The notes beneath the pieces were generated by a model that ran no database searches, was not told where the DNA came from, and saw only the letters and a list, made by a program, of their open reading frames with translations. Made by a program: the position numbers and the translations under genes. DNA of 60,072 bases, taken from positions 1 through 60,072 of the forward strand of contig JBBRUC010000006.1 of NCBI GenBank assembly GCA_038248205.1. Direction: 5' to 3'. Below are positions 1,510 to 60,072 of the stretch, piece after piece (position 1 is the stretch's first letter; each line of letters starts with the position of its first letter). This DNA comes from Thermoanaerobaculia bacterium. GTDB taxonomy: Bacteria; Acidobacteriota; Thermoanaerobaculia; Multivoradales; UBA5704.

Positions 1510-1522
1510 GTCGGAGTCCGAG

Positions 1523-2569: not shown

Positions 2570-2585
2570 GTCTGGAGATACCGAC

Positions 2586-12403: not shown

Positions 12404-12473
12404 CTATAATACATTTACTTTCAGCGGTTTGCAGGCCGTGTCGAGCTTGGAGACGCCAGGAGATGCCGAGGCA

Positions 12474-13752
12474 TCAAACAATCTCCTTCCTGGGCACGGC
12501 CGGGCCGGCCCAATAGGGCAAATAGGTCCGGCTTCTGTTTCCCGCTTCGGGGTCTCGCACCAAGATCACGCCAGCTCCTAGCGCTTCGGCAAGAAGGCGG
12601 GACGCTACCGCGGCGTTCTTTTCAGCTATCCCAAACCGCTCTCGAAGGGAAGTATTCGTCATAGGTTGGCGCACCACGAATCGAAGGCATGCATGCAGAT
12701 AGCAGGCCCTAACCCTCTCCGCTTTGTCCATCGCGGCCAGAGGCTTGTGGGCAAAAAGGATCGCCCTGGTGAATCCGTCCGGTCTCTCGAACAGCAGCGC
12801 CGGAAGCTGGTACAGCTCGACCTGCGCCACGACTTTATCGATTCCGCTGCCACGTTCCTCACAGACGCGAAAACGGCGCATCAGGGAGGCCAGCACTTCG
12901 TTCCGCGATTTCGGCGGAGTATCCACGAACCTCTGAGTGTCCACCAGCGGCTCGCCCGGATTGGTGATCTCGATCCGGTCGTTGAAGATCTCGACCATCG
13001 GTCCGGTTCCAGTGAGGAAGAAGTCCTGGTGAATGAGCGCGTTGGCCACCAATTCACGTACCGCTAGCTCGGGAAACATCGGCACGGATTCGCGTAGAGC
13101 CTGACCGATCACCTCGTTGGTGGGCAGCAGGCCGTTGATATACGCAACCAGGCCTTCGAATCCGCAGGCATAGCCTTTGGCGCCGAGCCTCTCTTTGAGG
13201 GTCTCGACCCGGCTGGTGCCACGGTACTGAATCACGCGCACCGCCTTCCGCTTCAGGGTGCGGAAATCGTCGAACTTTTTCGCGAATAGAACTGCGCCCA
13301 AGTTCGTGATGTTCCAGCCGCCTGCCTCGCAGGGACGGATCAGGTGGTCCTCTCCTAGGCTGGAGAGGATCAGGTCGCGATTTGCAGGGAGCGGTAGTTC
13401 GAGCAGGTCGAAGTAGGCCGGATAGTCCAGCAGTCGGAGCACTTGGTCCTTCCTCTACGCGTTCGAGCGCGATCAGTTCCTCGAACGGGGTCTGGTCGAA
13501 GATCCTCCATAGCTCGCGCTCGCGCTCGGGAGCGTCTTTGAGCGGCTTTTTCACCTCGCCGACGCGAATTAGCTCGTCGCTCCGAAACCGGACCGGATGG
13601 CGGAAGGCACGGCCGATCTCCAGCAAGATGACCGGACGGTCGTCCATGATGATCTCGGCGAAGCGGAAGTGGATTTTCGGTGTGAGCAGGCGGAGCAACC
13701 AAGTTTCCAGAGGCTCGTTACCCAGTTTGATCGCGGTGGGCGAGTCAGGTAC
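12474..13752 (-). pseudogene. AlbA_2 (Schlafen-like)/HATPase_c_4 RecG-C-like protein, 5'-truncated and frameshifted
   Basis: Two overlapping frames (13698-13054 and 13442-12474) join if one G is removed near 13450 (ERVEE-DQVLRLLDY). Motifs RELVANALIHQDF and EERGSGIDK. In-frame TAG at 13753-13755 with no proper N-terminus. Confidence 0.8.
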
Positions 13753-44881: not shown

Positions 44882-45020
44882 AGATGTCGATGCGCATTGC
44901 GTGGGGAGAGGATAGCGCGGTATTAAGGTAGCTCAGTGGTCTTTAGCGCGCTGCCCAAGTCACCCCGGTTCGCAAGTCGGCTCGCGCTCTCGGATAGCCG
45001 CTCCACGCCGTGGATAGCGG

Positions 45021-45185
45021 CTCTGCGTCCCAGGAGCGGAATATCCGTCCCAGAATAGGAATATCCGTCCCAGAATAGGACTATCCGTCCCAGAATAGGA
45101 CTATCCGTCCCAGAACGGGATCTACGGTCCCAGAATAGGACTATCCGTCCCAGAATGGGATCTGCGGTCCCAGAACGGGAATATC
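45021..45185. repeat. Tandem repeat, about 8 x 20 bp (consensus CTATCCGTCCCAGAATAGGA)
   Basis: Head-to-tail units start every 20 bp from 45021 to 45161, with no spacers. Confidence 0.95.
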
Positions 45186-45449
45186 GGCCGCCGAAAGCGG
45201 CCGGCAGCGCCCGTTCGCGGTTTTCCGTCTGGGTAAGGGGTTCGCAGCCGCGCAATCTTGCTGGACGACGCGGGATACCCCTTGCGCCGATGGCGATGGG
45301 GCGGCAACGCCCACAGCGTGCCTGGCGATTTGGATCACCGCAACGATCCGCAGCTTGGGCTGCGGAAGCACCATCGCGGCACTTACCGGGAAAACCCTGG
45401 ACGGGCTGGACGTTCGCGGGGCGGCGAGAATCAAGACGGCCGGGTGCCC

Positions 45450-48263
45450 CTAGCCTGCCGCCTTCGGGCCACCGCGGCAACCCTGGCCGTCCCTGTCGCT
45501 TTTGGGGCAACCAAGTAGAAGGGGGATAGAGGGGAGGCCCCACGGGCGCAAGGCCCAAATCTCCGTGCCGTTCGCCGCTTCGTAGAAGGGAAAGAAGACG
45601 CGGCCGGCCGCGGGGAGGAACTCCCCGCCCGGCAGGCCTTCGTGCGGCGCTAGGCGGCGCACCGTGCCCGCGGGCGTGCCGTCGGTTTCCCAAATGCCGT
45701 CGAAGGCGGTATAGGCGAGCCGGCCGGCGACGAGCGCGAAACCGTAGACCGAGGTGATGGGTTCGCCGTTCGCCTTTCGGAGCGCCTCGGTGCCCGCTCC
45801 GGTACCGTCGGTCGTGTAGAGCTGGTCGTCGGTGCCGAGAAAGACCAGGCGACCGTTCCATACTGTCGGCTCAAGCGAGCCGGCCGAGCGGAAGGAAAGG
45901 CCCAGGTCGTCGCGTTCCAGGTCGAAGCGAGTGCCGTCGCTGCGCCAGAAGCCAGCAGCGCCTCCGCCGTAGAAGAACAGGAGCACCTGGTCGCCGAGGG
46001 CGAAGAGGCCGATCTCCTCCGCCGCATGACCGGTGGAAGTTTGAAGCGGGCCGACCCGATGCGTGCCGGCCGCCGAGAGATCGGAGACCCAAAGCGCCGG
46101 TTCAGTGCCGACTTCGGATTCTTCGCCCGAGACGAAAAAGTATCGGCCGCCGGCCGGGACGATCTCGCTCGACAGCTCGAAGAAAGGGGCGGCCAGAGCG
46201 GGATATACGTCGGCCAGATAGCGGGTGCCGCCGATCGTGCCGTCCGAGACCCACGGCTCGAAGCGGCCGAAGGAGTCGGCGGCGAGGAATTCCAGCCGAT
46301 CCCCGAGCACGCGGAAAGGGCTGTGCTGAGAAAGAGCGATCTCGACAAACGGCTCGGGGTTGTCGAAATCCGACAGCCGCAGCGTACCCGCCGGGGTTCC
46401 GTCCGAGGTCCAAAGCTCCACGCCGTGCTCGGCATCGAACGCCTCAAAGAAGAGCCGCCGGCCGATCGCGCGGAAGCGCCCGGTCGGTCGCGGGCCTCCG
46501 GCGTCGACCCGAAACGTGCCGTCGGCGGTGCCGTCGCTGATCCATATCTCGGCCCGATCGAAGAATGGCGAGTCGATTAGGGCGATCCGATCTCCCAGGT
46601 CGGCCGCACCGATCTGGGATCGGGGGGAGAAAGAGTTCTGGTCGAACCGCACCGCGAGCTGGGTACCCGCCGCGCTGCCGTCCGAGGACCAAAGCTCCGT
46701 CTTGCCGCTTTGGAAGTCAGCGTTGGCGAAGAAAAAGCAGCGCCCCGCCCCGCTTTGTAAAGCGTAGGGAAACGAGCCGGCGTCCTGGCTTGGCTCGAGG
46801 TCGGAAAGGAGCGTCGTACCCGCCGGAGTACCGTCCGAGACCCAGGGCTCGGAGCCGTGCTCGGCGTCGTCGAGGCGTAGGAAGGCCCGGCCGCCGACGA
46901 AAACCCCGAGGGCGAGATCGAGGTAAGAATTCGCGCCGGACGGGCCGACGAGGCGGCGGGTGCCGGCGGCGGTGCCGTCGCTCGCCCACAACGAAACCTC
47001 GTTGAAGTCCCGAACCGAGAAATACGCCTTACCTCCTCCGAGCAGAAAGCCTTCCGGTGAGGAGGAGAGGTTGCCTGGGACGATGTCTTTGACCCGGCGG
47101 GTGCCGGCGGGCGTCAAATCGCTGGTCCAAAGCTCGCCGCCGGCCGAATCGTCGACGCCGGAAAACCAGACTCGGCTGCCGTCGGAGACGCCGACCGAGT
47201 ACGCGCCGGAGCAGAAACCCGGACAGACGTCGAGGGGGCGGGTGCCGGCGGGCGTGCCGTTGCTCGTCCACATCTCCGTGCCATGATCGCGGTCGAAGGC
47301 GACGAAGCCCACCCGCGGGCCGACGAAGACGAACTTCGGCGCGACCGCGCCGTAGTCGAGCTGCGCGAGCCGTCGGGTGCGGGCGGGGGTGCCGTCGCTC
47401 GCCCAGACCTCATCGTGCGACCCGCTCCCCTCGCTGCGCGAGATGGCGAAGTACGCGGTTGCGCCGTTCGTCGCGAACGGCGCGATGGAGTTGGCCGAAA
47501 ACGGTGCCACGGCCGGCAGGACGCGCGTTCCCGAGGACGTCCCGTCGCTCGAATAGAGGCGTACATCGAACGTTCCCGGACCCTGGGCGAAGAAGAGGAG
47601 CCGCGACCCGGCGACGCCGACTTGGAGGGGATTGCCGACGGTCGCGATCCGGCGCGTGCCGGCGGCCCTGCCGTCGCTGGTCCAAAGATCGCCCTGCCTG
47701 AAGAACCAGAGTCGGTCGTTGCCCCAAACCAGCAGGAAGGGCGAGGAACTCGCCGGGCCGGGTGCCAGATCCTTGACCATCCGGGTACCGGCGCGCGTGC
47801 CGTCGCTGGTCCAAAGCTCGGCGCCCCTGGCGGGGGTCGCATGGACGAAGAAAATCCGTCGCGGTCCGGCGACCGTCCCGTCCGCCGCCGCTTCGAACGA
47901 GTTCAAAAGGGGGCGGGTGCCGGCCACCGTGCCATCGGTTACCAGGAGGCGGCAGCGCACCGCCGTACAGGCGGAAAGGAAAGCGAGTTCGCCGGTGGCC
48001 GCCACCGAGTGGATCGAAGTCTGGTTCTTGAGCAATCGCACGGTACCGGCGGCCGTGCCCGTGCTCGACCAAAGACCGAGCCCTGGGTTATGGGCGAGGA
48101 ATAGGGCCCGCGAGCCGACCTGGCCGAAGCGATCCGGCCGCGAGCCGGCACTATGGAAGGTGGGGTCGAGATCGGCGACGCGGTAGGGCACGGCGGGAAA
48201 CGCCGGAACCAGCGAGAACGCGACGGCGAGCGCCGGAGCGAAGAAAAACGTTTTCGTGCTCAT
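45450..48263 (-). CDS. ELWxxDGT repeat secreted protein
   Basis: Signal peptide and many ELWTSDGT/EPWVSDGT repeats. Confidence 0.9.
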   Translation of the reverse strand: MSTKTFFFAPALAVAFSLVPAFPAVPYRVADLDPTFHSAGSRPDRFGQVGSRALFLAHNPGLGLWSSTGTAAGTVRLLKNQTSIHSVAATGELAFLSACTAVRCRLLVTDGTVAGTRPLLNSFEAAADGTVAGPRRIFFVHATPARGAELWTSDGTRAGTRMVKDLAPGPASSSPFLLVWGNDRLWFFRQGDLWTSDGRAAGTRRIATVGNPLQVGVAGSRLLFFAQGPGTFDVRLYSSDGTSSGTRVLPAVAPFSANSIAPFATNGATAYFAISRSEGSGSHDEVWASDGTPARTRRLAQLDYGAVAPKFVFVGPRVGFVAFDRDHGTEMWTSNGTPAGTRPLDVCPGFCSGAYSVGVSDGSRVWFSGVDDSAGGELWTSDLTPAGTRRVKDIVPGNLSSSPEGFLLGGGKAYFSVRDFNEVSLWASDGTAAGTRRLVGPSGANSYLDLALGVFVGGRAFLRLDDAEHGSEPWVSDGTPAGTTLLSDLEPSQDAGSFPYALQSGAGRCFFFANADFQSGKTELWSSDGSAAGTQLAVRFDQNSFSPRSQIGAADLGDRIALIDSPFFDRAEIWISDGTADGTFRVDAGGPRPTGRFRAIGRRLFFEAFDAEHGVELWTSDGTPAGTLRLSDFDNPEPFVEIALSQHSPFRVLGDRLEFLAADSFGRFEPWVSDGTIGGTRYLADVYPALAAPFFELSSEIVPAGGRYFFVSGEESEVGTEPALWVSDLSAAGTHRVGPLQTSTGHAAEEIGLFALGDQVLLFFYGGGAAGFWRSDGTRFDLERDDLGLSFRSAGSLEPTVWNGRLVFLGTDDQLYTTDGTGAGTEALRKANGEPITSVYGFALVAGRLAYTAFDGIWETDGTPAGTVRRLAPHEGLPGGEFLPAAGRVFFPFYEAANGTEIWALRPWGLPSIPLLLGCPKSDRDGQGCRGGPKAAG

Positions 48264-48277
48264 CGGATTCCCCTCTT

Positions 48278-50962
48278 CTAGGGCCGTAGCGCCCAAAGCT
48301 CCGGACCATGGATTTGGTCATCCCACACGAAATAGAGCCGATCGCCCGCGGCGACGGCTTGGGAAGAAAAGCGACCGGGCCCGCCGGGAATTTCGATCGG
48401 CACCGTCCCCGCCGGTGTGCCGTCGCTTGCAAACGGTGCGTTGCGCGAAGCGATCACGAGCCGGCCGCCCACGACGGCAAGGGCGCTCGCTTCGAGCGAT
48501 TGGCCCTCGGCGTCGAGGGAGCGGAGGGTTCCCGCGGCGGTGCCGTCGGTTGACCAGAGGCCGCCAGAATTCGCGGTTGCAAACCAGAGGCGGCCGCCGA
48601 AGACCACCGGCGGCACGAAGCGCCCGATCGCGGCCCGGGCGATCACGTGCGTTCCGGCCGCCGTGCCGTCGCTTACCCAGAGGCCGGAGCCCAGCAAGGA
48701 GGCCGGACCGAAGGCGAGCATCTTGTTTCCCAAAGGCCAGAGCGACCAGCCGCCAACGTCCGCGCGGGCGAGGTCGAGGGGACCGACCGCTACCGTGCTC
48801 GCGGCGGAGAGATCGGTGCGGAAGAGCGTCGGCTCGGCCTCTCCCGGTTCGACTGCGACGAACCAGTATGTGCCGCCGAGTTCGGCGATCGGGCTCCTGG
48901 CCGAGGCCAGCAAGGTTTCGAGAAACGGATAGACCTCTTCGATAGGTCGGGTGCCTTCCGACGTGCCATCGGAAATCCACAGCTCTTCGCCACCCAGCGG
49001 CGAAAGGACGGGCGCCACCACGCGGGAGCCCAAGGCGAGCAGCGCCGGACGGTCGCCGGAATTGGGACGGAACGGCTGGGGGGGGACGAGGTCGGTTAGC
49101 GGAAGGGTACCGGCCGGCGTGCCGTCGGTCACCCACAGCTCCTCGCCGCGGGCGGCGTCCTGGGCGACGAAGAACAATTTTCCACCCGCCCGGATCCGGT
49201 TGCCGTCGGCCAGGGCGCCGGAGGAGAGCAGAGGCTCGGTTCCCTCCGGGGTGCCGTCGCTACCGAGGAGTTGGAACCGGTCCAAGAAGAATCGTCGGAA
49301 GAAGAGCACCAGTCGGCCGCCTGCCTCGCTGGAGAGGATGGCGTTGATCTCGGAGGACTGCGGGCCGGGATCGAATTCGAAAACGAGCTTGGTTGTCTCG
49401 GGCGTTCCGCCCGAACTCCAAAGCTCATTGCCCGAAACCCCGTCGTCGGCGAAGAAGAAGGCCCGGTTGCCGGCGGCGGAAAGGCTGGTGGGATTGGCCC
49501 CCACCAGGTTTTCCGCGTCGAGGTCGGCGAGGAGGAGCGTTCCCGCGGCTGAGCCGTCCGAGACCCAAGGCTCGACACCGTGGGCGGAATCGCTCCCCGC
49601 AAAGACGATCCTGGAACCCGCGAGCGCCGCCGCACTCGAGGAGTCGAAGAAGGTCGACACAGGCCCGAGAAGCCGGGTGCCGGCCGTGGTGCCGTCGCTG
49701 CCAAAGATCGACCGATTCCCCAGCGGCGAGTTGCCGACGAAATAAACCCGGTTGTCGGCCGCGAACCACTCTTGCGGAGCGGTTCCGCAGGGGCCGGCGC
49801 AGAGATCCCGCAGCTGGCGCGTACCGGCTGGGGTCAGATCACTGGTCCAAGCTTCGATGCCTCGGGCGGAGTCTTCGCCGGAAAACCAGATTCGCCCCAG
49901 CGCTGAAATCCCGAACTGCCAGACGCCGCTGCAGGAGCCGGCGCAGATCTCTTTGACCACCCGCGTGCCCGCGGGGGTGCCGTCGCTCGCCCAAAGCTCT
50001 TGCCCCCGGCTGGGAGTGGAAGCGAGGAACGCGACCTTGCCGCCGAGCGCCGCGAGATCGGTTCCCAGGTCCGCCGCCCCGAAGACGAGCCGCGTTCCGG
50101 CGGAGGTGCCGTCGGTGGCCCACAGCTCGCGCCGGCCGTTGGCGATCAGGAAGAAGAAAGCCCGGTTCGCCGCGACGACGATCGGCTCGTGCAAGTCGAT
50201 TCCCGCGCCGGGCAGGGTCGCCAGGCGCCGCGTTCCCGCGGGAGTGCCGTCGGTCTTCCACAGCTCGTCGCCCGCGTAGTAGAGCAGCCCGTTGCCGAAC
50301 CGGGTAAGCCCAAAGCCGGCGATCGACGCTCCGACTCTCTTCGTGCCACCCGGCAGGCCGGTGGTTGCGAAGAGCGCCCCTCGGGCGTTTGGCAGATCGG
50401 CGAAAAACCAGCCCTTGCCGCGGAATTCGACCAACCCCCGCGCGTCCCGCGCCGGCAGATTGATCTTTCGCGTACCGGCGGGGGTGCCGTCGGTTCGCCA
50501 AAGCATTGCGCCGTGGCCGGCATCGGCCAAGAGCAGCGTTCGCGGCAGGCCGGCGGGCGCCACCGCTTCGATCGGCGAGAAACCGGCCGATTGGAATCGC
50601 ACCAGACGGACGGTTCCAGAGGATGTGCCATCGGTACCCCAGAGGCCGCAGCCGTTGCCGCTGTTGCCGCACAGGGTCAGGTAGGCGCGCCCTCCGGCCG
50701 CGGCGGGGCCGGAAAAGATGCGCTGGTCTTGCGGGATCACCAATTCCGGATCGCCGGGTAAGCCCCCGGTCGTCCAGAGACCGGAATTCGAACCGCTGGT
50801 AAAGACGACCCGCCCGCTGAGCGCGGTGAACTCGCGCGGCTGCGAGCCTTCGCTCATAAATCGGGGGTCGATGTCTTCGACCAGATACGGCACGACGGCA
50901 AAGCTCGGGGCAAGAGACAGGATGGAAGAGGCCAGCAAAGCCGCACAACGGATCGCTCTCAT
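48278..50962 (-). CDS. ELWxxDGT repeat secreted protein
   Basis: Signal peptide MRAIRCAALLA.., ELWKTDGT/ELWATDGT repeats, ends ELWALRP. Confidence 0.9.
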   Translation of the reverse strand: MRAIRCAALLASSILSLAPSFAVVPYLVEDIDPRFMSEGSQPREFTALSGRVVFTSGSNSGLWTTGGLPGDPELVIPQDQRIFSGPAAAGGRAYLTLCGNSGNGCGLWGTDGTSSGTVRLVRFQSAGFSPIEAVAPAGLPRTLLLADAGHGAMLWRTDGTPAGTRKINLPARDARGLVEFRGKGWFFADLPNARGALFATTGLPGGTKRVGASIAGFGLTRFGNGLLYYAGDELWKTDGTPAGTRRLATLPGAGIDLHEPIVVAANRAFFFLIANGRRELWATDGTSAGTRLVFGAADLGTDLAALGGKVAFLASTPSRGQELWASDGTPAGTRVVKEICAGSCSGVWQFGISALGRIWFSGEDSARGIEAWTSDLTPAGTRQLRDLCAGPCGTAPQEWFAADNRVYFVGNSPLGNRSIFGSDGTTAGTRLLGPVSTFFDSSSAAALAGSRIVFAGSDSAHGVEPWVSDGSAAGTLLLADLDAENLVGANPTSLSAAGNRAFFFADDGVSGNELWSSGGTPETTKLVFEFDPGPQSSEINAILSSEAGGRLVLFFRRFFLDRFQLLGSDGTPEGTEPLLSSGALADGNRIRAGGKLFFVAQDAARGEELWVTDGTPAGTLPLTDLVPPQPFRPNSGDRPALLALGSRVVAPVLSPLGGEELWISDGTSEGTRPIEEVYPFLETLLASARSPIAELGGTYWFVAVEPGEAEPTLFRTDLSAASTVAVGPLDLARADVGGWSLWPLGNKMLAFGPASLLGSGLWVSDGTAAGTHVIARAAIGRFVPPVVFGGRLWFATANSGGLWSTDGTAAGTLRSLDAEGQSLEASALAVVGGRLVIASRNAPFASDGTPAGTVPIEIPGGPGRFSSQAVAAGDRLYFVWDDQIHGPELWALRP

Positions 50963-51082
50963 GGCGAGAACGGACACTTGTTGTAGGAAAGCGTTTACGG
51001 GTGCGGGGACTCGCTTGCAAAGCACCCGTCAACGCGAAGCCGCGCATTGGTTGCCGACCGGCGTGAGACGTGGGCCGAGACG

Positions 51083-52000
51083 TTACGGCGTCGGCTTCAC
51101 GAACGCCTTGGCATCTTCGTCGAACACCCTGAGTGCGGCGCTCTTGGGAATCTCGAAGACCGCCGCATCCAACGTTTGGTTGATCGACAGCTCCTCGATC
51201 TGAAAGAAAGCGCGCAGGCCCGCCTCGTTGGCCACCGAGTCCCAGGCGACGAAGACGACTTTGTCCGGAATGTGGAACGTATCCCCCCCGGCGACAACTT
51301 GCCGGTAGGAGGAAATCTCGATCATTCCGCTGGGTTGGCCGGCCTGATCCAGAGGATCGACCCTCATCGGGAGCAGACCGAACTCTGTCGTTCCGAGATG
51401 GATTCGATATTTCTGAGCCTGGCCGCCGACGCTTTCGCCGGTGATGTCGAGCGCCGGAAACCCGCCGACGCCGGGTACGGAACTCACTTCCGCAGAGGCC
51501 AGCCGCGCGTTCCACAGCTCCGCATCGCGAAGATCTTCGAGCTTCAACGTGCATCCTGGGCAGGCGTCTCCCTGGCGGCTTAAGAACTCTACGGCGAAAA
51601 AGAAGGGATTCGGCAAAGCGGTCGGGATCGCCGACAGATCGCCTCGGCGGATTGAAAGAAGCTTCATGCCTTGATCAAGGATCTGTAGGCTTTGGCCGTT
51701 GAAGGCCCAATCCATATCTTGCATGAACGGCAGGGAAGCATCGCTCTTGCTGCTGATTCGAAACTTTTTTCCGTCTGCCCAGTACTCGAACGAACCACTT
51801 CCGGCGGTTTCTGGTTGAGCCACATTGTCCGGGCGGAGAATCAAGATGCGTGACGAAACTCGCAGATGGATGCTTTGAATCTTCGCCATCTGGGCCTGAA
51901 GCGCACGAAGAGGCGCCGCTTGCTTTGGCTCGGTGGCGTAGCCGGCGCCACCGACCGCCGTCACCAAAGCGAAAAGGAGAAGGGACACGGTTCTTTTCAT
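51083..52000 (-). CDS. Secreted hypothetical protein (possibly LolA-like fold)
   Basis: RBS AGAGGA, a clear signal peptide and a beta-rich pattern ending LDAAVFEIP. Confidence 0.7.
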   Translation of the reverse strand: MKRTVSLLLFALVTAVGGAGYATEPKQAAPLRALQAQMAKIQSIHLRVSSRILILRPDNVAQPETAGSGSFEYWADGKKFRISSKSDASLPFMQDMDWAFNGQSLQILDQGMKLLSIRRGDLSAIPTALPNPFFFAVEFLSRQGDACPGCTLKLEDLRDAELWNARLASAEVSSVPGVGGFPALDITGESVGGQAQKYRIHLGTTEFGLLPMRVDPLDQAGQPSGMIEISSYRQVVAGGDTFHIPDKVVFVAWDSVANEAGLRAFFQIEELSINQTLDAAVFEIPKSAALRVFDEDAKAFVKPTP

Positions 52001-52098: not shown

Positions 52099-53295
52099 CT
52101 ATTTTGCGGGGTGCGCCAGCCGCGCCGCCACCCGGCGGTACGCTTCGCGGAACGAAATCCCCTCCTCCAAAACCAGCCGGTAGGCCTCTTCCGCCGCGTA
52201 CAGCTCGGGATCGAGGTGGATCTTCTCTGGCAGGAAGCGGACGCCGGGGAGGGCGTGGGCGAGGATCGCGGTGGTTTCGAGCGCGAGGTCGATGCCGCGG
52301 AAGAGGGGGGCTTTGAGCAGCTGTAGGTCGCGGTGGTAGCCGGAGGGGAGCTTGGCGGGAATGGCGAGCGCTTCGAGGAGGCCTGCGTGGCCCGCGGCGG
52401 TGCGGGCTCGGATCAGCTCGAAGACATCCGGGTTGCGCTTCTGGGGCATGATCGATGACCCGGTCGTCATCTCGGGCGGCAGGCTCGCGAAGCCCAGCTC
52501 TTTCATCGAGAAGAGGACGAGATCGGCGGCCAGCCGGCCGCAATCCTGGAGCAGTAGGGCGACCTCGAACAGGACGTGCGCTTCGGCCTTGCCGCGGGAG
52601 AGCTGGACGGCGGTCACGGGCTCGTGGACCGTACGGAAATCGAGCTTGGCGCGCGTCGCTTCGCGGTCGATGGGCAGGATCTCGGGGACGCCGTAACCGG
52701 CGGCGGAGCCGAGCGGGTTCTTGTCGATCCGCCGGAGCGTCGCCTCGAACCCTTCCGCGTCGTCGCGCAGTTCGCTCGCGAAACCGCCGGCCCACTGGGG
52801 GACCGAGCTGGGCATCGCGGGCTGCAGGTGGGTGTAGCCGGGTAGCGCCTGGTTCGGATGGCGCGCCGCGAGATCGTCGAGCGCCGATCCGACCGCCCGG
52901 GCGCCTTGGGCGAGGTCCGCCACCGCGTCGCGCAGATAGAGGCGCAGGGCGGCGAGGACCTGGTCGTTGCGGCTTCGCCCGAGATGGATGCGCGCGCCGG
53001 CCTCGCCGATCCGCTCGGTGAGCCGCCGTTCGAGCGCGGTGTGGCAATCCTCGTCGGCCAGCTCGATCTTCCATGCTCCGGCGGCGTGCTCGGCGCCGAG
53101 CGCTTCGAGCCCGGCGCGAATTGCGGCGAGATCTTCTTCGCCGAGCAGCTTCTGTTCGGAAAGCATTTCGGCGTGGGCGATCGAGGCGCGGACGTCATAG
53201 GCCACCAGCCGCTCGTCGAGCGCGTGGTCTTCTCCCGCGGTGTAGCGAAGTACGCGTTGATCGAGCGGTACGCCTTTGTCCCAGAGTCGGCTCAT
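52099..53295 (-). CDS. argH: Argininosuccinate lyase (short form)
   Basis: HLGRSRNDQV, PGYTHLQPA, GSSIMPQKRNPD and SGYHRDLQ. Confidence 0.95.
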   Translation of the reverse strand: MSRLWDKGVPLDQRVLRYTAGEDHALDERLVAYDVRASIAHAEMLSEQKLLGEEDLAAIRAGLEALGAEHAAGAWKIELADEDCHTALERRLTERIGEAGARIHLGRSRNDQVLAALRLYLRDAVADLAQGARAVGSALDDLAARHPNQALPGYTHLQPAMPSSVPQWAGGFASELRDDAEGFEATLRRIDKNPLGSAAGYGVPEILPIDREATRAKLDFRTVHEPVTAVQLSRGKAEAHVLFEVALLLQDCGRLAADLVLFSMKELGFASLPPEMTTGSSIMPQKRNPDVFELIRARTAAGHAGLLEALAIPAKLPSGYHRDLQLLKAPLFRGIDLALETTAILAHALPGVRFLPEKIHLDPELYAAEEAYRLVLEEGISFREAYRRVAARLAHPAK

Positions 53296-54389
53296 GCGAG
53301 GTCACCTCTCAACCCGAGAGCCTCGATCAGGGCGAGATAAAATCTTGCCCCCTCAAGGATCTCCCCCTCTTCCACGTACTCATCCACCCGGTGCGAGCGC
53401 TCCGAGCGGCCGGGGCCGCATTTGATCGCGGGCGCGTCGATCAGCGCCCAGTCGGAGAGGGTGGGCGAGCCGTAGGTGCGCGCGCCGGGCCGGGCGGTGA
53501 GGGCGGCGGCGAGAAGGGGCGAGTCTTGCGGTGTGGCGCGGGGGCGCAGGCGATCGGAGAGCACGCGGACCTCGGCTCCCACCGCGCCGCCGATCGAAAG
53601 AGCGATCTCTCCCGGCGGCAGGGCTGGCGTGGTGCGCACGTCGAGCAGGGCGGTCGCCTCGGCCGGCAGGACGTTTCTGGCCGTGCCGGCGCGTAGTTGG
53701 GTCGGTTCGACCGTGATCGGGCCGAGGGCCGCGTGGTGCGGAAATTCGAGCGCTTCCAGTTTCAACAGGTCGCGCGCCAACTCGCGGGCGGCGTTCTTTG
53801 CGCCGAGCGCCTGGGCATTGGCCGCATGGCAGGCGTCGCCGCGGGCGACCAGCTCTAGCACCAGCAGCCCTTTTTGGGCGATCGCGATGTCCAGCCCCGT
53901 CGGCTCGCCGATGATCGCGCCCGCGATCTTCCGGCCGCGTTCGGCGAGAACGCTGAGAATTCTCTCGGTGCCCGTTCCTTTCGTCTCCTCTTGCTCGACC
54001 AGCGCGAGCGCGAGGGCGAAGGGGAGCGGCCGATCGTGCAGGGCGACGAACGCCGCCGACATCGCGGCGACCGAGGCTTTGGCGTCGTTCGATCCGAGCC
54101 CGTAGACGCGCCCTTCTTCGAGCGTCGCCTCGTATGGCTCGCGGGTCCAGCCGGGCGCGGGGGGGACGGTGTCGAGATGTGTATCGAGCAGAAGGATCGG
54201 CGCGTCCGGGCTCGTCCCCTCGTGGATCGCGAGGAGGGTATTGCCGAAGCGCTCGACCGTGATGCCGCGCGCCAGCAGCCACCCGCCCATTCGCTCGGCG
54301 AGCGCCCCTTCGTTGCCGGAAACCGAAGGGGTCGAGACCGCGAGCCGATGAAGCGCGAGGATCTCGGCGGGGGAGGGAGACGCGGCCAC
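53292..54389 (-). CDS. argE: M20 deacylase (acetylornithine/acetylcitrulline deacetylase)
   Basis: THLDTV, GLGSNDAK, EE, GEPT and SH..DE; lies in the arg operon. Confidence 0.88.
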   Translation of the reverse strand: MAASPSPAEILALHRLAVSTPSVSGNEGALAERMGGWLLARGITVERFGNTLLAIHEGTSPDAPILLLDTHLDTVPPAPGWTREPYEATLEEGRVYGLGSNDAKASVAAMSAAFVALHDRPLPFALALALVEQEETKGTGTERILSVLAERGRKIAGAIIGEPTGLDIAIAQKGLLVLELVARGDACHAANAQALGAKNAARELARDLLKLEALEFPHHAALGPITVEPTQLRAGTARNVLPAEATALLDVRTTPALPPGEIALSIGGAVGAEVRVLSDRLRPRATPQDSPLLAAALTARPGARTYGSPTLSDWALIDAPAIKCGPGRSERSHRVDEYVEEGEILEGARFYLALIEALGLRGDLA

Positions 54390-54399
54390 GGGAAACCTC

Positions 54400-55323
54400 T
54401 TACCCGGCCGCCGCGAGCTCGGCGGGAGAGAGGGCGTGAATGTCGGCCACCACCAGAGTGCCGCTCCCTTCGTTGGTGAACACCTCGCGCAGCAGCGCGT
54501 CCGGCGCGGTCTGCGAAATGACGTGGACCCGGCGCACCCCTTGGGTGAGCGCGTGTTCGATCGCAGCCGCCTTCGGCCTCATACCGGTGCCGAGCGCGCC
54601 GTTGCGATTCAGCTCGGCGAGCCCGGCGAGGTCGGTGTAGGAGATCCGCGAGCCCGCTTCTTCTTCGCGTTCGAGGATGCCCGCGGCTCCTGTAAGGACG
54701 ATCAGTTTCTCGGCCGAGAGGGCGACCGCTAGGCGCGCGGCGACCGTGTCGGCGTTGACGTTCAACAGGCCCCCCGCCTCGTCGGCCGAGATCGGGCTCA
54801 CGATCGGCACCAGCCCGGCGTCGAGCTGCGCCAGAACGACTTTCGGATCGACGCGGATCACGTCGCCCACCAGGCCGTAGTCGACGGTCTCGCCGTCCAC
54901 CTCGACCGGCGGCCGGCGGCGCGCGACGATCAGTCCGGCGTCCACCCCCGACAGGCCCACGGCGGGCACGCCCACCCGCCGGCAAAGGGCGAGGATGTGG
55001 GTGTTGACCGCGCCGTTCAACACCATGGTCGCCGCTTCGAGCGAGACCGGGTCGGTCACCCGGCGACCGGCCTTGAACTCGACCGCGGCGCCCAGGGTCG
55101 CCGCGAGTGCCGAGGCCTGTGGGCCGCCACCGTGGACCAGGACCACCCGCACCCCGAGCCGATGGAGGATCTCCACCTGTTCGAGCAGGGCGATCGTGGT
55201 CCGCTCGTCGGCGAACGCGCCGCCTCCCGCTTTGATCACGAAGGTCTTGCCCTGGTAGAGGCGGATATAGGGAATCGCGAGCTTCAAGCCCGCGACCTCG
55301 ACGTTGGAATCATGGTGGTTCAT
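54400..55323 (-). CDS. argB: Acetylglutamate kinase
   Basis: VIKAGG, VHGGGP, GRRVTD, NVNADT and GMRPK. Confidence 0.93.
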   Translation of the reverse strand: MNHHDSNVEVAGLKLAIPYIRLYQGKTFVIKAGGGAFADERTTIALLEQVEILHRLGVRVVLVHGGGPQASALAATLGAAVEFKAGRRVTDPVSLEAATMVLNGAVNTHILALCRRVGVPAVGLSGVDAGLIVARRRPPVEVDGETVDYGLVGDVIRVDPKVVLAQLDAGLVPIVSPISADEAGGLLNVNADTVAARLAVALSAEKLIVLTGAAGILEREEEAGSRISYTDLAGLAELNRNGALGTGMRPKAAAIEHALTQGVRRVHVISQTAPDALLREVFTNEGSGTLVVADIHALSPAELAAAG

Positions 55324-55354: not shown

Positions 55355-55416
55355 CTTCGACTTCGCTCAGGGCGCGCGCACTCAGGGTTCTGTGCGTTGA
55401 CTGAGCGAAGTCGAAG
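55355..55416. repeat. REP-like inverted repeat
   Basis: CTTCGACTTCGCTCAG (55355-55370) and CTGAGCGAAGTCGAAG (55401-55416) are perfect 16-bp arms 30 nt apart. Confidence 0.85.
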
Positions 55417-56434
55417 CCAGCATTCGATGCAACACCGCCATCTGGGCCCACATCCGGTTGTGGGCCTGGGGGAGTACCGCGCTGCGCGGTCCGTCCAGCA
55501 CCTCGTCGGCGACCACGACGTTGCGGCGGACCGGCAGGCAGTGAAGAAACCGGGCGCCGGGTGCCGCCGGGCGGAACCACGACTCGTCGACCGTCCAGTC
55601 GGCGTACCGCGCGCGCAGCTCGGTCTCCGTCGCCAGCTCACCGTAGTGCGCGGCGGAGGCCCACGACTTGGCGTAGATCACGTGCGCGCCGGAAAGCGCC
55701 GCCTCGCGATCCGCGGTCTCTCCAACCGACCCGCCCGACAGGGCGGCCGAGGCGCGGGCACGCGCCATCAGCGGTTCGGGCAGCGCGTACTCGTCGGGGC
55801 GCAGGACGGTCACGTCCATCCCGCGCGCCGCCGCCATCTGGACGACGGTGGCGGGTACCGCGAGCGGCAGCGGCTTCGGGTGGCGCGCCCAGGTGAGGAC
55901 GAGTTTGCCGCCCGCCGACGGGAGTCCCAAGTCGTCGAGCGTCTTCCAATCGCCGAGCGCCTGGCACGGATGGTCGATCGCCGATTCCAGGTTGATCAGG
56001 GGCAGCGGGTGGATCGCTTCGAGGGTCGCCGCCATCGCGGCGAACGTCGAGTCGGCGAGGTCGGATGCCAGATCGGTACCGCCCGCGAACGACCGAATGC
56101 CCAGCGCATGGGCGTACCCGGCGAGCACCGGAATCGCCTCGCGCACGTGCTCGGCCGCCGCGCCGTCCATTACGACCCCGGTTCGCGTCTCCAGTTGCCA
56201 GCTTCCCTGGCCGGGGGAGATCACGAAACAGGAACCGCCGAGCCGCGCCATGCCGGCCTGAAAGCTGGCGAGCGTCCGGAGCGACGGATTGAAAAACAAT
56301 AGCCCGAGGACTTTCCCCGGCAACGTGAGCGAAAGCGCCGCCGGGTCGGGATGCTTCTCCAACCAGGAGGCGAGCGCCAAGAGCTCGCCGATTTCCTCGC
56401 GCGAGTGCTCGGATAGCGAGACGAACCGCTTCAT
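55382..56434 (-). CDS. argF: N-acetylornithine (or N-succinylornithine) carbamoyltransferase, ArgF'
   Basis: FFNPSLRT, HPCQ, HPKPLP proline-rich loop and HCLPVRRN, as in AOTCase/SOTCase. Confidence 0.92.
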   Translation of the reverse strand: MKRFVSLSEHSREEIGELLALASWLEKHPDPAALSLTLPGKVLGLLFFNPSLRTLASFQAGMARLGGSCFVISPGQGSWQLETRTGVVMDGAAAEHVREAIPVLAGYAHALGIRSFAGGTDLASDLADSTFAAMAATLEAIHPLPLINLESAIDHPCQALGDWKTLDDLGLPSAGGKLVLTWARHPKPLPLAVPATVVQMAAARGMDVTVLRPDEYALPEPLMARARASAALSGGSVGETADREAALSGAHVIYAKSWASAAHYGELATETELRARYADWTVDESWFRPAAPGARFLHCLPVRRNVVVADEVLDGPRSAVLPQAHNRMWAQMAVLHRMLASTSLSQRTEP

Positions 56435-57633
56435 TCGGCCGCTCCGGGTAGTTCGCGAAGGGCGGCGACGAGCGCGTCTACATGAGCGTCTTCGAGCACC
56501 AGCGGCGGCAGCAGGCGGAGCACGGCGGGGTCGGCGCTGGTGCCGGTCAGCAGGCCGCGGCTGAGCAGCTCGGCCTGCACTTGCTTTGCCGGCCGCGCGC
56601 AGCGCAGTCCAAGCAGGAATCCCGCGCCTTGTATGGAAGTCACGACGCCGCCCAGGCACTCGGCTTGGAGCCGCGCGGAAAGCCGCCGCACCCGGGCGAG
56701 TAGATCCTCTTCTTCGATCGCGGCGATCGTCGCTTCGATCAGCGCGCAAGCGAGCGGCCCGCCGCCGAACGTGGTGCCGAGATCGCCCTTCTTCAAACCC
56801 GCGCCCGCCGCGTCCGAAACCAGCACCGCGCCGGCCGGAAAACCGCCCGCGAGGCCCTTTGCCGTCGTCAAAAGATCGGGCGTCACCCCGTGCAACTGCG
56901 CCGCGAACGGTTGCCCGGTGCGCCCCATGCCGCACTGCACCTCGTCGAAGATCAAGAGCGCGCCCTGGCGCTTCGTCAGCTCGCGCGCGGCGGCAAGATA
57001 GGAGGCTCCGAGATCCACCGCTCCGGCCATCCCCTGCACCGGTTCGAGGATCAACGCCGCGACGCCGGAGTCCGCCTCGCCGCGCGGAGTGAGCGCGCGT
57101 TCCAGCGCATCGAGATCGCCGACCGGAACGAACTCCACCTCGAACGGATTCGACGGAAACCCCGCCCACTTCTCCGAGCCCCAGGTGACCGCCGCCGCCG
57201 CCGCCGTCCGGCCGTGGAAGCTCCCTTCGAGCGCGATCACCCGCTTCCGGCCGGTCTGGCGGATCGCGAGCCGCAGCGCGTTCTCGTTCGCCTCGGCGCC
57301 GCTGTTGACCAGGAACGTGTGGGAAAGCCCCTTCGGGGCGAACGAGACGAGCGCGTGGGCGGCGCGGGCGCGAATTTCGAGCGGTACCAGATTGCTCTGG
57401 AAGAACATCGTTTCCGCCTGGGCGGCAAGCGCCGCGAGCAGACGCGGATGGCCATAGCCGAGCAGAGCCACGGCGTGGCCGCCATAGAAATCCAGCAGCT
57501 CGCGGCCGTCGCGGGTCCAGAGCTTCACCCCAAGGCCGCGCACCGGTTCGACCGGCAGCTGGGCGTAGACCGGCAGCAGCCAGCGGGCTTCCTCTTCGGT
57601 GGCACCTGCCGGCGCGATTTCCAGTTCGACCAT
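56431..57633 (-). CDS. argD: Acetylornithine aminotransferase
   Basis: NSGAEANE, FHGRT, EPVQG, DEVQCGMGRTG and AKGLAGG. The start could be 57648. Confidence 0.92.
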   Translation of the reverse strand: MVELEIAPAGATEEEARWLLPVYAQLPVEPVRGLGVKLWTRDGRELLDFYGGHAVALLGYGHPRLLAALAAQAETMFFQSNLVPLEIRARAAHALVSFAPKGLSHTFLVNSGAEANENALRLAIRQTGRKRVIALEGSFHGRTAAAAAVTWGSEKWAGFPSNPFEVEFVPVGDLDALERALTPRGEADSGVAALILEPVQGMAGAVDLGASYLAAARELTKRQGALLIFDEVQCGMGRTGQPFAAQLHGVTPDLLTTAKGLAGGFPAGAVLVSDAAGAGLKKGDLGTTFGGGPLACALIEATIAAIEEEDLLARVRRLSARLQAECLGGVVTSIQGAGFLLGLRCARPAKQVQAELLSRGLLTGTSADPAVLRLLPPLVLEDAHVDALVAALRELPGAAE

Positions 57634-57656
57634 GCCGTTTCCCTTCATGATTTCGT

Positions 57657-58745
57657 TCAGATCCAACCCAGCCCCGGCTGCGCCAGACCCGCCGCCTCGG
57701 GCATGCCGAGCAGCCGATTCATCCATTGGACCGCGCCGCCGGCCGCTCCTTTGACCAAGTTGTCGATCGTCGAGAAAGCGACCAGGTCGTCCCCCCGGAG
57801 CGCGAAGGAGAGCGATGCTCGATTGGTGCCGACCACGTCTTGCAGCCGGGGCGGCTTGCCCCCTGCCGGGACGACGTTGACGAACGGCGAGCCGGCATAG
57901 AACCGCGCGACGCCCGCCACCACCTCTTCGAGGTCCGCCGGCCGCGCCAGGCGGGCGTGGATCGTGGCGTAGATGCCGCGCGCGTACGGCCCCGACTGCA
58001 GCAGGAAGGCGATCTCAACCGGCCGCCCGGCCGCGGTGCCCGCGTGGAGCCGCATCTCCGGCTCGTGGCGGTGGTTGAGCGGGTTGTAGGCGAAGACGTT
58101 GCTCCGCCGCTCGGGGTGGTGCGTCGTGGCGGTAGGAGTCCGCCCGGCTCCCGTGCTGCCGGTGACGGCTACCACCGTGAAGCGCGGTTCGATCAGCCCC
58201 AGCTTCAACAGCGGCACCGAGGCGAGCAGCACCGAGGTGGTGAAGCATCCGGGATGGGCGACCCGCCCGAGCGGCGCTTCGGCCAAATGCTCCGGCACGG
58301 CGGAAACGAATTCCGCGAGCCGCCCCGGCGCGCCGTGGGCTTGGCCGTAGACCTCCTGATACCGCGCGGCGTCGGGAAAGCGAAAATCGGCCGAGAGATC
58401 GACCAGCCGCACCCGCGCGTCGGCCTCTTCGGCGTGGCGGAGCAGCGCATCGACCAGCGGCGCCGAAGCCCCGTGCGGTGCCGCGGAAAACACCGCGACC
58501 GTCTCGTTTTCGGCGAACAGCCGGGGCAGCGCGTCGCTGCCGACGAACTTGAGGCCGGGAAACGCTCCCGCGAGATGAGGGAATGCCTCTTCGACCAAGC
58601 TGCCCGGCTTGCTCTCCGAGATCACCGCCAGATCGCGCAGAAACGGATGGACCGCGAGCAGCCGGAGCAGCTCTCCGGCGATGTAGCCCGAGCCGCCGAT
58701 CACCACCGTGCGGGCGGTATGATTTCCTGAGGTTCCCGCGGTCAC
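57657..58745 (-). CDS. argC: N-acetyl-gamma-glutamyl-phosphate reductase
   Basis: GGSGYIAGEL, DLSADFR, PGC, GSTGAG and DNLVKGAAG. GTG start overlaps the upstream stop. Confidence 0.93.
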   Translation of the reverse strand: MTAGTSGNHTARTVVIGGSGYIAGELLRLLAVHPFLRDLAVISESKPGSLVEEAFPHLAGAFPGLKFVGSDALPRLFAENETVAVFSAAPHGASAPLVDALLRHAEEADARVRLVDLSADFRFPDAARYQEVYGQAHGAPGRLAEFVSAVPEHLAEAPLGRVAHPGCFTTSVLLASVPLLKLGLIEPRFTVVAVTGSTGAGRTPTATTHHPERRSNVFAYNPLNHRHEPEMRLHAGTAAGRPVEIAFLLQSGPYARGIYATIHARLARPADLEEVVAGVARFYAGSPFVNVVPAGGKPPRLQDVVGTNRASLSFALRGDDLVAFSTIDNLVKGAAGGAVQWMNRLLGMPEAAGLAQPGLGWI

Positions 58746-59827
58746 GAGGCGAGCTCTCCGCCCGCGACGCGCGCCGGGTCGTACGGCATCAGCCGCGAGC
58801 GCACCAGCTTGGCCAGCCGCTCCCCCTCGGTGCGGGCGTTGATCGCCGGCACGCCGACGGTCTGCTCGATGATCCGGGTGCCCACCAGATTGTCGGTCGC
58901 CGGTCCGGTGACGGCGACCGGCTCGATGCCGAACCGCTCGCGCAGCAGGCGTACGCCGCCCCAGGCGGCTACGGGATCGTTGGCCGCCAGCACCACCGCG
59001 GTGAACGCCTTCTTGATCTCCTCGTCGTCGAGGATCGCGTCGACGCCGTAGGCGCCGAGCAGGCCGTCGCCCAGCTCGACCATGATCGCCTCCGGCTTGC
59101 CCGCCGCGAGCTGGGTGAGCAGGGTTCGGGTGACCGCGGCGGCGTTGGCCGAGGAGGTCGAAACGACGCCTAAATCGGTAAAGATTCCGGTCGTCCGGGC
59201 GCCCGCGTCCTCCATCGCCAGGATGTCGCGGCGGAGCGAAACGCCGGTCGCCTTGAACCCGTCGACCGTGTAGCCGGCATGTGACAGGTGGCGGATCAAT
59301 GTACAGGCCGCCGCGGTTTTGCCGCTGTTCATGCACGATCCGACGATCGCGATGACCGGCACGTCGGACGGTTCGAGCGGCGCCGCCAGGTCGAGCGGCC
59401 GTTCGCCGATACGCGCCGGAACGCCCACCCGCTCGCCCAAGAACGGGAACGACAGCACGGCGCCGATCACCTCCGCATCGAACGGCGGCCCCAGATCCGG
59501 ATTGATCGAATCGCAAATCCCCAGCACGCCGCCGATGTTGAGCAGCTGAATCCGGTCGCCCGGCACCAGATGGTCGGGCAGATGGCCGGAATAACCGAAC
59601 AGCGCCTGCCGGTGGCCCAGCGCGCCGGCGATCACGTCGCCGTTTTTCACCAAGGCCATCCGCCCGCTCGGCAACTCCAGCTGGTTGTAGGTCGTCTTGT
59701 CCGAGAGGATGCGCACGGCGACCACGATCCCTTCGCGGCAGGGAATCTCCGGGCTGGTGAGCACTTCGCGCTTCAGCCGGCAGGTCTTGGTCACCGAAGC
59801 GATCTTGTCGAGAATCACGGCTTTCAT
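58742..59827 (-). CDS. DUF1611/DgcN-like P-loop-fold protein in the arg operon
   Basis: GALGHRQA..GYSG, VGSCMNSGKT, FTDLGVVST, VELGDGLLG and AANDPVAA. Overlaps both neighbours by 4 nt. Confidence 0.7.
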   Translation of the reverse strand: MKAVILDKIASVTKTCRLKREVLTSPEIPCREGIVVAVRILSDKTTYNQLELPSGRMALVKNGDVIAGALGHRQALFGYSGHLPDHLVPGDRIQLLNIGGVLGICDSINPDLGPPFDAEVIGAVLSFPFLGERVGVPARIGERPLDLAAPLEPSDVPVIAIVGSCMNSGKTAAACTLIRHLSHAGYTVDGFKATGVSLRRDILAMEDAGARTTGIFTDLGVVSTSSANAAAVTRTLLTQLAAGKPEAIMVELGDGLLGAYGVDAILDDEEIKKAFTAVVLAANDPVAAWGGVRLLRERFGIEPVAVTGPATDNLVGTRIIEQTVGVPAINARTEGERLAKLVRSRLMPYDPARVAGGELAS

Positions 59828-60072
59828 GAACTCACCTCCGAACCCGCACGCCGATAGAGCATGCCGGGCATTGCCGCCAAACGCGATAGACCGCGGGCAT
59901 CTTCAGACGTCCACTCTCCCGCCGCTTCGCCGTAGACGCCGCGGGTCGCGGCGAGCAACGAGTAGGGCGACTCGACCCCTTCGACGAACAGGTTCCCCGG
60001 CCGGAAACGCAGCAGAACGTCCCCCGTCACCCGCTCCTGACTCGACAACAGCAGCGCCTCGATGTCGCGGCA
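59824..60072 (-). CDS. argG: Argininosuccinate synthase, C-terminal part (5'-partial)
   Basis: RDIEALLLSSQERVTGDV...SPYSLL...YGE...W...DARG; arg operon context. Confidence 0.85.
   Translation of the reverse strand, partial: CRDIEALLLSSQERVTGDVLLRFRPGNLFVEGVESPYSLLAATRGVYGEAAGEWTSEDARGLSRLAAMPGMLYRRAGSEVSS

Follow-up and report, generated by a model that had tools for sequence, protein, structure and literature searches.

The arginine operon and gene X

The window analysed here is a stretch of 60,072 nucleotides from a Thermoanaerobaculia bacterium of the phylum Acidobacteriota (assembly GCA_038248205.1, contig JBBRUC010000006.1, positions 1 to 60,072). At its end lies an arginine biosynthesis operon in which one gene, called X throughout, probably encodes an alternative enzyme for the first step of the pathway, the synthesis of N-acyl-L-glutamate. 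Scans with Pfam and NCBIfam models gave the gene order argG-X-argC-argD-argF'-argB-M20 deacylase-argH, with all genes on the minus strand. The features of the operon and of X are listed below; ORF stands for open reading frame, pLDDT for predicted local distance difference test and DTBS for dethiobiotin synthetase.

59824..60072, minus strand: argG, 3' end only, the contig ending at 60072 (Pfam/NCBIfam)
58742..59827, minus strand: gene X, 361 aa, predicted alternative N-acyl (probably N-succinyl)-L-glutamate synthase (ORF, translation, homologues, model pLDDT 95)
59408..59827, minus strand: N-terminal all-beta domain of X, residues 1 to about 140 (DSSP of models; best fold match Z 3.3; outside the hhalign alignment with DUF1611)
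58790..59380, minus strand: C-terminal P-loop (SIMIBI/DTBS/DUF1611_C-like) domain of X, residues about 150-346 (VIA-align Z; hhalign 88.6% over 153-346)
59315..59341, minus strand: Walker-A-like loop GSCMNSGKT of X, residues 163-171 (G169 and K170 invariant in 55 homologues)
59252..59254, minus strand: Lys192 of X in a KxTG motif, invariant (aligns with a lysine of dethiobiotin synthetase; DUF1611 is without a Lys counterpart)
59060..59077, minus strand: ELGDGL motif of X, residues 251-256 (E251 invariant; aligns with the EGQGS motif of DUF1611)
57657..58745, minus strand: argC (TIGR01850, 283.5 bits, above cut-off)
56431..57726, minus strand: argD-type N-acylornithine aminotransferase, exact start uncertain (matches to Aminotran_3 and to argD-family models, under the equivalog cut-offs)
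55382..56437, minus strand: argF', N-acylornithine carbamoyltransferase, with Ala at the Xanthomonas Glu92 position, codon 56153-56155 (Pfam and PDB alignments)
54400..55299, minus strand: argB, plain N-acylglutamate kinase, the open frame continuing to 55641 (TIGR00761, 192 bits, above cut-off)
53292..54389, minus strand: M20 ArgE/DapE-family deacylase, candidate N-acylcitrulline hydrolase (Pfam/NCBIfam)
52099..53295, minus strand: argH, argininosuccinate lyase (TIGR00838, 279.2 bits against a cut-off of 279.5)

X is tightly packed between its neighbours. Its ATG start codon (59827-59825) shares bases with the TGA that terminates argG (59826-59824), giving ATGA, and its TGA stop codon (58744-58742) shares bases with the GTG that starts the argC frame (58745-58743), giving GTGA. 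An earlier note on this DNA had described a 361-aa gene with these two overlaps and with the motifs GxxMNSGKT and VELGDGL; both overlaps can be read in the sequence, and in the translation GSCMNSGKT occupies residues 163-171 and VELGDGL residues 250-256. It had also held that the operon covers all steps but that of ArgA/ArgJ, and the Pfam and NCBIfam scans identified the neighbouring genes as it had named them. Step 1 is the sole step of the arginine pathway without a gene in the operon. The argB of the window covers only positions 35-286 of a 441-position model of the fused synthase-kinase (ArgA/B), and is without the fused acetyltransferase domain.

Conservation of X and its locus

The X ORF is real and is conserved far beyond chance. 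Homologues were numerous, with 7180 of 8000 scored candidates matching at E<=0.001. The best 120 of these are 75-94% identical to X, come mostly from Thermoanaerobaculia/Acidobacteriota metagenome-assembled genomes (MAGs), have no Pfam domain and, where named, are called 'hypothetical protein'. When clustered at 50%, the X family had 1462 representatives at E<=0.001, 194 of them at E<=1e-30. An alignment of 55 sequences, A1, was made from X, two close homologues and 52 full-length representatives from the best 150 of the 1462, fragments and sequences under about 330 aa being left out. P84, G169, K170, K192, E251 and D284 are invariant in A1, and T171 is nearly so.

The genomic setting was compared in the closest 80 of 520 confirmed relatives (at least 61% identical to X), the locus search being made with a 14-sequence alignment. 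These 80 loci include Steroidobacteraceae, Chromatiales-type gammaproteobacteria and one Planctomycetota MAG. They were scanned by tblastn with the window's own arginine proteins; many are cut by contig ends, and they are not independent of each other. argC stands immediately after X in 79/80 loci, the one exception being a contig end just after X. Upstream, argG precedes X in 71/80 and argR precedes argG in 67/80. The other genes of the pathway were also found near X, namely argB in 60/80, argD in 58/80, argF' in 56/80 and argH in 51/80, and the M20 deacylase was present in 19/80, confined to Acidobacteriota-type clusters. By contrast with these genes, ArgJ was found by tblastn in 0/80 loci within 10 kb of X. 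The earlier note had warned that argA might lie upstream of argG, and this concern is not borne out by the position of argR and the absence of ArgJ in the same loci. Locus L015, 95% identical and situated on a 191-kb contig, has tyrS, argR, argG and X in that order, and therefore no argA is hidden there.

Longer proteins containing X were considered as possible fusions. There are 15 of them, each a single sequence in which X is joined to the neighbouring ArgG, ArgC or ArgD, and all being singletons they are most simply taken as frameshift or gene-calling artefacts. Separately from these, a 626-aa representative (P0192) resembles X over residues 4-313 and carries an ArgB-type amino-acid kinase domain further on, at 363-597. 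This could also be a gene-calling artefact, or, if real, could link X to the next step of the pathway; it was not used as evidence.

Distribution of X and known synthases in Acidobacteriota

One fixed set of 201 Acidobacteriota genomes was used for all searches in this phylum. The genome from which the window comes (93% complete, 2% contamination) has no ArgJ and no full ArgA, the ArgA model TIGR01890 matching only the kinase part of argB; small synthases of the GCN5-related N-acetyltransferase (GNAT) type were not searched for. X was matched in 57/201 genomes, 48 of them with a full-length protein (E<=5e-43), 8 with a weaker paralogue and 1 (G053) with a fragment of 75 residues beside argC. 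argC was present in 113/201 genomes, ArgJ in 47/201 and classical ArgA in 1/201. In none of the 201 genomes do X and ArgJ occur together, and all 95 holders of X or ArgJ have argC. X-holders belong to 18 families and ArgJ-holders to 22; only one family (f28) has both, in different genera. X lies <400 bp from argC in 47 of the 48 X-holders, and in the remaining one, G171, they are on separate contigs. Of the 201 genomes, three carry an unpublished flag, namely the X-holders G024 and G049, and G152 with ArgJ and a paralogue; without these three there are 46 X-holders and 46 ArgJ-holders among 198 genomes, and the overlap is still 0. The anticorrelation with argA/argJ that the earlier note had proposed examining is thus seen here, and is seen again in the form of 0/81 genomes with X and fused ArgA/B in the gammaproteobacterial order described below.

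The remaining 18 argC-positive genomes hold neither full-length X nor ArgJ; G053, with its fragment of X, is among them. Six others (G162, G183, G010, G004, G012 and G043; loci L099-L103 and L107) have a layout of argC, a gap and a weak argB, with or without argD, which looks like the LysW-type carrier-protein cluster for lysine/arginine. Second copies of argC in G063, G080, G104 and G053 lie in similar LysW-like clusters, and some genomes of this kind also carry an X-type arginine operon.

Distribution in a gammaproteobacterial order

The second sample comprised 81 genomes of the gammaproteobacterial order to which locus L072 belongs; completeness figures are not given for these genomes. X is present in 35/81, at 53-65% identity, and one further genome (G236) has a paralogue only. 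ArgJ and TIGR01890 were both found in 0/81 genomes, and those queries are therefore uninformative in this order. The informative query was NF003387, the 441-position model of the fused ArgA/B. A full-length fused ArgA/B above cut-off, covering positions ~3-437, is present in 27/81 genomes, and G223, G265 and G269 have fused ArgA/B fragments that include the acetyltransferase half. A plain ArgB, matching positions ~33-290 only, occurs in 34 of the 35 X-holders, usually at a distance of ~4 kb; the one remaining X-holder, G277, has X 1.8 kb from a contig end. X and fused ArgA/B occur together in 0/81 genomes, and plain ArgB without X in 0/81. In the other 16/81 genomes both X and any match to ArgB are absent, with the reservation on completeness given above. 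In this order, the acetyltransferase domain fused to ArgB is the feature that alternates with X, and this points specifically to step 1.

Family and fold of X

X has no match to Pfam or NCBIfam models at E<=0.001, and at E<=10 only MobB and CbiA appear. For PF07755 (DUF1611) there is no match to X even at E<=10, and none in the whole window genome at E<=1e-5. Weak matches were obtained among the 55 members of A1, with CbiA in 32, MobB in 30, DUF1611_C (PF07755) in 30 (best E 1.3e-5) and AAA_26 (PF13500) in 8 (best E 1.8e-4). The model for the other part of DUF1611, PF17396, which we take to be its N-terminal Rossmann-like domain, is absent from the 21 families matched by any of the 55.

The AlphaFold model of X (pLDDT 95; predicted template modelling score, pTM, 0.91) consists of an all-beta N-domain, at about residues 1-135, and an alpha/beta P-loop domain. 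In an exhaustive fold search with VIA-align, DUF1611 structures took ranks 1-3, these being 2g0t (Z 17.5, 181 residues aligned, root-mean-square deviation (rmsd) 2.8), 2obn (Z 17.1, 189 aligned) and 7xrj, the 'N-acetyltransferase DgcN' (Z 16.1, 183 aligned). Alignment of A1 by hhalign with nine true DUF1611 proteins from the same phylum gave a probability of 88.6% and an E value of 2.6e-6 across 176 columns, covering X residues 153-346 only. A fold and profile comparison with DgcN had been suggested in the earlier note, and it came out in favour of a relationship in the P-loop domain, with the DUF1611 structures nearly tied with DTBS at the top. Searches of PDB sequences with X, by single sequence and by profile, found DTBS (profile E 3e-4) and FtsY, and no DUF1611 entry. 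The P-loop domain of X is a remote relative of DUF1611/DgcN and of dethiobiotin synthetase.

The N-domain was also modelled alone (pLDDT 89) and compared with 48,161 solved chains; the best match had Z 3.3, and there was none at Z>=5. As modelled, this domain is all-beta, has no solved structural counterpart and bears no relation to the N-domain of DUF1611. X is not a DUF1611 protein by Pfam criteria, having no PF07755 match, and its N-domain is a different one. The statement of the earlier note that the motifs fit the DUF1611 P-loop-like fold is hence right for the remote likeness of the P-loop domain, and does not extend to Pfam DUF1611 membership or to the N-terminal part of the protein.

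X also has a family of paralogues, 335-430 aa in length and 31-34% identical to X over its residues ~50-340; the eight paralogue matches in the 201 Acidobacteriota genomes are at 31-36% identity and E ~1e-20 to 1e-24. They were found in G002, G038, G039, G093, G142, G152, G153 and G175 (loci L110-L122), and also in G236. The Pfam cut-off for DUF1611_C is passed by 2 of the 6 paralogues scanned, so that this family bridges X and DUF1611. No conserved neighbour and no arginine-related gene stands beside the paralogues, where FMN reductase, cytochrome oxidase, YheC/D ATP-grasp, P-type ATPase and protein kinase genes occur. The paralogue family co-occurs with ArgJ or fused ArgA/B, and the presence of ArgJ in the paralogue-holders G038 and G152 fits a different role for the paralogue.

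The acyl group

The carbamoyltransferase of the operon gives some indication of which acyl group is carried through the pathway. ArgF' of the window is closest to the N-acetylornithine carbamoyltransferase of Xanthomonas (E 6e-66), the N-succinylornithine enzyme of Bacteroides being found at E 1e-49. It has Ala at the position of Glu92 (MDGAAAEH), and among PDB entries the E92A mutant 3l02 matches it best. At the same position, the 56 ArgF' proteins adjacent to X in the 80 loci have Ala in 54 cases, Ser in 2 and Glu in 0. Shi et al. 2007 are cited in the preprint appendix to PMC13759103 for a shift in specificity to N-succinylornithine when Glu92 is replaced with Ala, Pro, Ser or Val. Ala or Ser at this position points to succinylated intermediates, and the residues in ArgF' make it more likely that the acyl group is succinyl rather than acetyl.

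Discussion

With the gene, its position in the operon, its remote fold kinship and its complementarity with ArgJ and fused ArgA/B established, X is probably a non-orthologous N-acyl-L-glutamate synthase and the first enzyme of arginine biosynthesis, most likely acting by succinyl transfer from succinyl-CoA. X would move the succinyl group from succinyl-CoA onto the amino group of L-glutamate in step 1, and the later steps would be carried out by ArgB, ArgC, ArgD, ArgF' (as an N-succinylornithine carbamoyltransferase), the M20 deacylase, ArgG and ArgH, all of which are encoded in the operon. The catalytic scaffold would be the P-loop domain remotely related to DgcN, a D-glutamate N-acetyltransferase of the DUF1611 group, joined to an all-beta N-domain specific to the family. 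By analogy with DgcN we infer the acylation of L-glutamate, with succinyl-CoA as the most likely donor, and any role given to the N-domain is of the same conjectural kind. The proposal of the earlier note that this clade supplies N-acyl-L-glutamate for arginine synthesis is supported by the comparative evidence from operon, complementarity and fold, with the modification that the acyl group is more likely succinyl.

Several points weigh against this interpretation. The kinship of X to DgcN is remote and restricted to the P-loop domain, the N-domain being unrelated. In a Foldseek search of PDB, HypB, signal recognition particle (SRP) GTPases, DTBS and the DUF1611 structure 2obn all scored ~1e-6 to 1e-5, and a list as flat as this does not set DUF1611 apart from the other families. 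In the VIA-align search, DTBS 1a82 (Z 16.1, 177 residues, rmsd 2.7) ties with DgcN 7xrj. Fisher p-values overstate the X/ArgJ signal, because related genomes share history. Furthermore, at least five of the 18 argC-positive genomes mentioned above (G181, G179, G158, G082 and G048), which also have argB, are without X, ArgJ, ArgA and fused ArgA/B; their arginine clusters are ordinary and their argB is plain. G181, a 98% complete genome and a congener of X-holders, has argC-argD-argF'-argB (L098, 7955-12175) with mlaE/F/D upstream in the place of X. It follows from these five genomes that another, unrecognised synthase must exist in the phylum, and that absence alone is weak evidence; this synthase could be a small GNAT protein, which could also be present in X-holders. 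Finally, the GapMind table of PMC13759103 gives the experimental evidence for the Steroidobacter homologue of X, discussed below, as 'no'.

It is possible that X has another role linked to the operon, and could serve as a nucleotide-dependent metallochaperone or maturation factor for the deacylase or another enzyme, as a regulator, or as the N-acylcitrulline hydrolase that the gammaproteobacterial clusters lack, and that an unrecognised GNAT carries out step 1. SIMIBI metallochaperones, HypB and UreG, are among the fold matches of X, the five arginine-capable genomes with neither a recognised synthase nor X indicate that undetected synthases exist, and the complementarity of X and ArgJ could in part mirror whether the pathway is linear or cyclic, and not step 1 itself. 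This possibility seems unlikely when it is considered that in the gammaproteobacterial order it is only the acetyltransferase domain of the fused ArgA/B that alternates with X, and that all the other steps are already covered by genes of the operon. X is, moreover, found both with the M20 deacylase (19/80 loci) and without it, and is neither tied to that enzyme nor a replacement for it everywhere.

A second alternative is that X does make N-acylglutamate, but by ATP-dependent, DTBS-like chemistry, in which an ATP-activated free acid (succinate or another) or a carbamate would be ligated to glutamate. Among solved proteins, the best sequence matches of X are dethiobiotin synthetases (profile E 3e-4), and 1a82 stands level with DgcN in the fold search. 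In the GKT loop, G169 and K170 are invariant in 55/55 sequences and T171 nearly so. The invariant Lys192 aligns with a lysine of DTBS, presumably the catalytic K37, and true DUF1611 proteins have no lysine there, so that ATP-dependent ligation has to be considered. Against this, DUF1611 structures outrank DTBS, by only ~1 Z unit, and DgcN, itself a P-loop protein, is said to use acetyl-CoA; an intact P-loop therefore need not mean that ATP is used. This alternative is regarded as quite unlikely. As a tentative and broader possibility, step 1 could be carried out by a class of P-loop enzyme without biochemical precedent, with an active-site layout (GKT loop and invariant Lys192) nearer to that of DTBS than to that of acyl-CoA transferases and an ATP-driven ligation leading to N-succinylglutamate or another N-blocked glutamate, the all-beta N-domain, with a fold not seen before, binding glutamate or sensing arginine for feedback.

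That X is a DgcN-type enzyme of D-glutamate catabolism lying in the arginine operon by coincidence is very improbable. Nothing but the distant likeness in fold to DgcN 7xrj speaks for it, and against it stand the failure of X to match the Pfam DUF1611 models, its different N-domain, the place between argG and argC that is kept in 79/80 loci, and the occurrence of true DUF1611 genes elsewhere in the phylum, two genomes (G024 and G089) holding both kinds.

N-acetylglutamate synthase is the arginine step most often missing from genome annotations. If X is indeed an N-acyl-L-glutamate synthase, its family would fill this gap in about a quarter of the sampled Acidobacteriota (48/201) and in many Steroidobacteraceae and Chromatiales-type gammaproteobacteria. 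A P-loop fold would then join ArgA, ArgJ, fused ArgA/B and the short GNATs as independent solutions for step 1. Complementation of an E. coli argA mutant may give a false negative if the product of X is succinylated, the later E. coli enzymes being adapted to acetylated intermediates.

Comparison with known systems

X is a new Acidobacteriota member of a family for which this role has already been predicted. In the GapMind study of Price et al. (PLoS Genet 2026; PMC13759103), the Steroidobacter homologue ACG33_RS14135 is predicted to be an alternative ArgA. Four arguments are put forward: that the homologues are almost always within arginine operons, that the protein never occurs together with homologues of Pseudomonas ArgA, that there is a weak Foldseek match to 7XRJ, and that position 92 is A, P, S or V in 90% of 70 ArgF' neighbours. 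These arguments, of neighbourhood, ArgA absence, weak 7XRJ fold match and ArgF' residue 92, are shared with the present analysis. New here, compared with PMC13759103, are the complementarity with ArgJ and fused ArgA/B, the result on the N-domain and the observation on Lys192. Since the prediction is already in print, the value of the present analysis is that of independent support from another phylum, in the form of two new tests of complementarity (ArgJ and fused ArgA/B) and of structural details that can guide biochemistry. A literature search on succinylglutamate synthase and related terms gave no other source for the X family.

The Steroidobacter protein belongs to the same family as X, Steroidobacteraceae homologues being 62-67% identical to it over residues 1-342, and occupies the same place in the operon argR-argG-X-argC-argD-argF'-argB-argH. 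X differs in coming from an Acidobacteriota (Thermoanaerobaculia-type) MAG and in having an operon with an additional M20 deacylase, which is missing in Steroidobacter. The supplement of PMC13759103 includes a plasmid map with the codon-optimised Steroidobacter gene. When its sequence was compared with A1 by eye, the DKIxS N-terminal motif, the GTCMxxGKTAAAC loop and ELGDGLLGAYGV agreed. In the text of PMC13759103 that was searched there is no complementation result for the cloned gene, although S1 Text might report one. The map of pALF12 in supplement file 3 labels the insert 'A0A127FTC3', and the table of the paper has A0A127FCT3, so that a transposition in the label is probable.

With DgcN and the DUF1611 proteins (PF07755 plus PF17396; 7xrj, 2g0t and 2obn) X has a remotely homologous P-loop domain in common (Z 16-17.5 over 181-189 residues) and, by analogy, would share the chemistry of N-acylation of glutamate. 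It differs in its context, which is arginine biosynthesis and not D-glutamate catabolism, and in its substrates, presumably L-Glu and succinyl-CoA. The racemase gene dgcA, which we assume to be the neighbour marking the catabolic D-glutamate context of DgcN, has no counterpart beside X, where the neighbours are arg genes only. The dethiobiotin synthetase BioD shares with X the P-loop fold, the GxxxxxGKT loop and a lysine ~22 residues downstream that aligns in both. BioD has no equivalent of the extra 140-residue N-domain of X, acts in another biological context and shows only marginal sequence similarity (profile E 3e-4), and X lies outside the definition of a dethiobiotin synthetase as a PF13500, BioD-length single-domain protein.

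The step proposed for X is carried out elsewhere by ArgJ, by classical ArgA and by the fused ArgA/B of Xanthomonadales, none of which shares a sampled genome with X. Their folds are unrelated to that of X, ArgJ being of the DmpA/OAT fold and ArgA and fused ArgA/B consisting of amino-acid kinase and GNAT domains, and they use acetyl groups. In the N-succinyl arginine pathway of Bacteroidetes (1js1/2fg6) the intermediates are succinylated, as is predicted here, and ArgF' of the window likewise has a small residue at the specificity position. It matches the B. fragilis enzyme at E 1e-49, yet overall is nearer to the Xanthomonas acetyl-type enzyme (E 6e-66). Bacteroidetes use a GNAT-type synthase for step 1.

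Other observations

Many ArgC matches carried the flag '1 TGA', and two of them were considered as candidates for selenocysteine and read with TGA as U; in both the TGA is the terminal stop codon, and the idea was rejected. In G181, the argB gene is followed by an ORF of 155 aa (12275-12742) with no Pfam match. Downstream of argH in the window, the region 44923-52000 on the minus strand contains several long ORFs (305, 571, 915, 948 and 312 aa) that overlap in part, in different frames, and have no Pfam match at E<=0.001; some of them are probably not genes, given the GC-rich DNA. In locus L015, a few kb upstream of tyrS-argR, positions 1098-5075 hold an ORF of 1325 aa with calcineurin-like phosphoesterase and NACHT/STAND NTPase domains.

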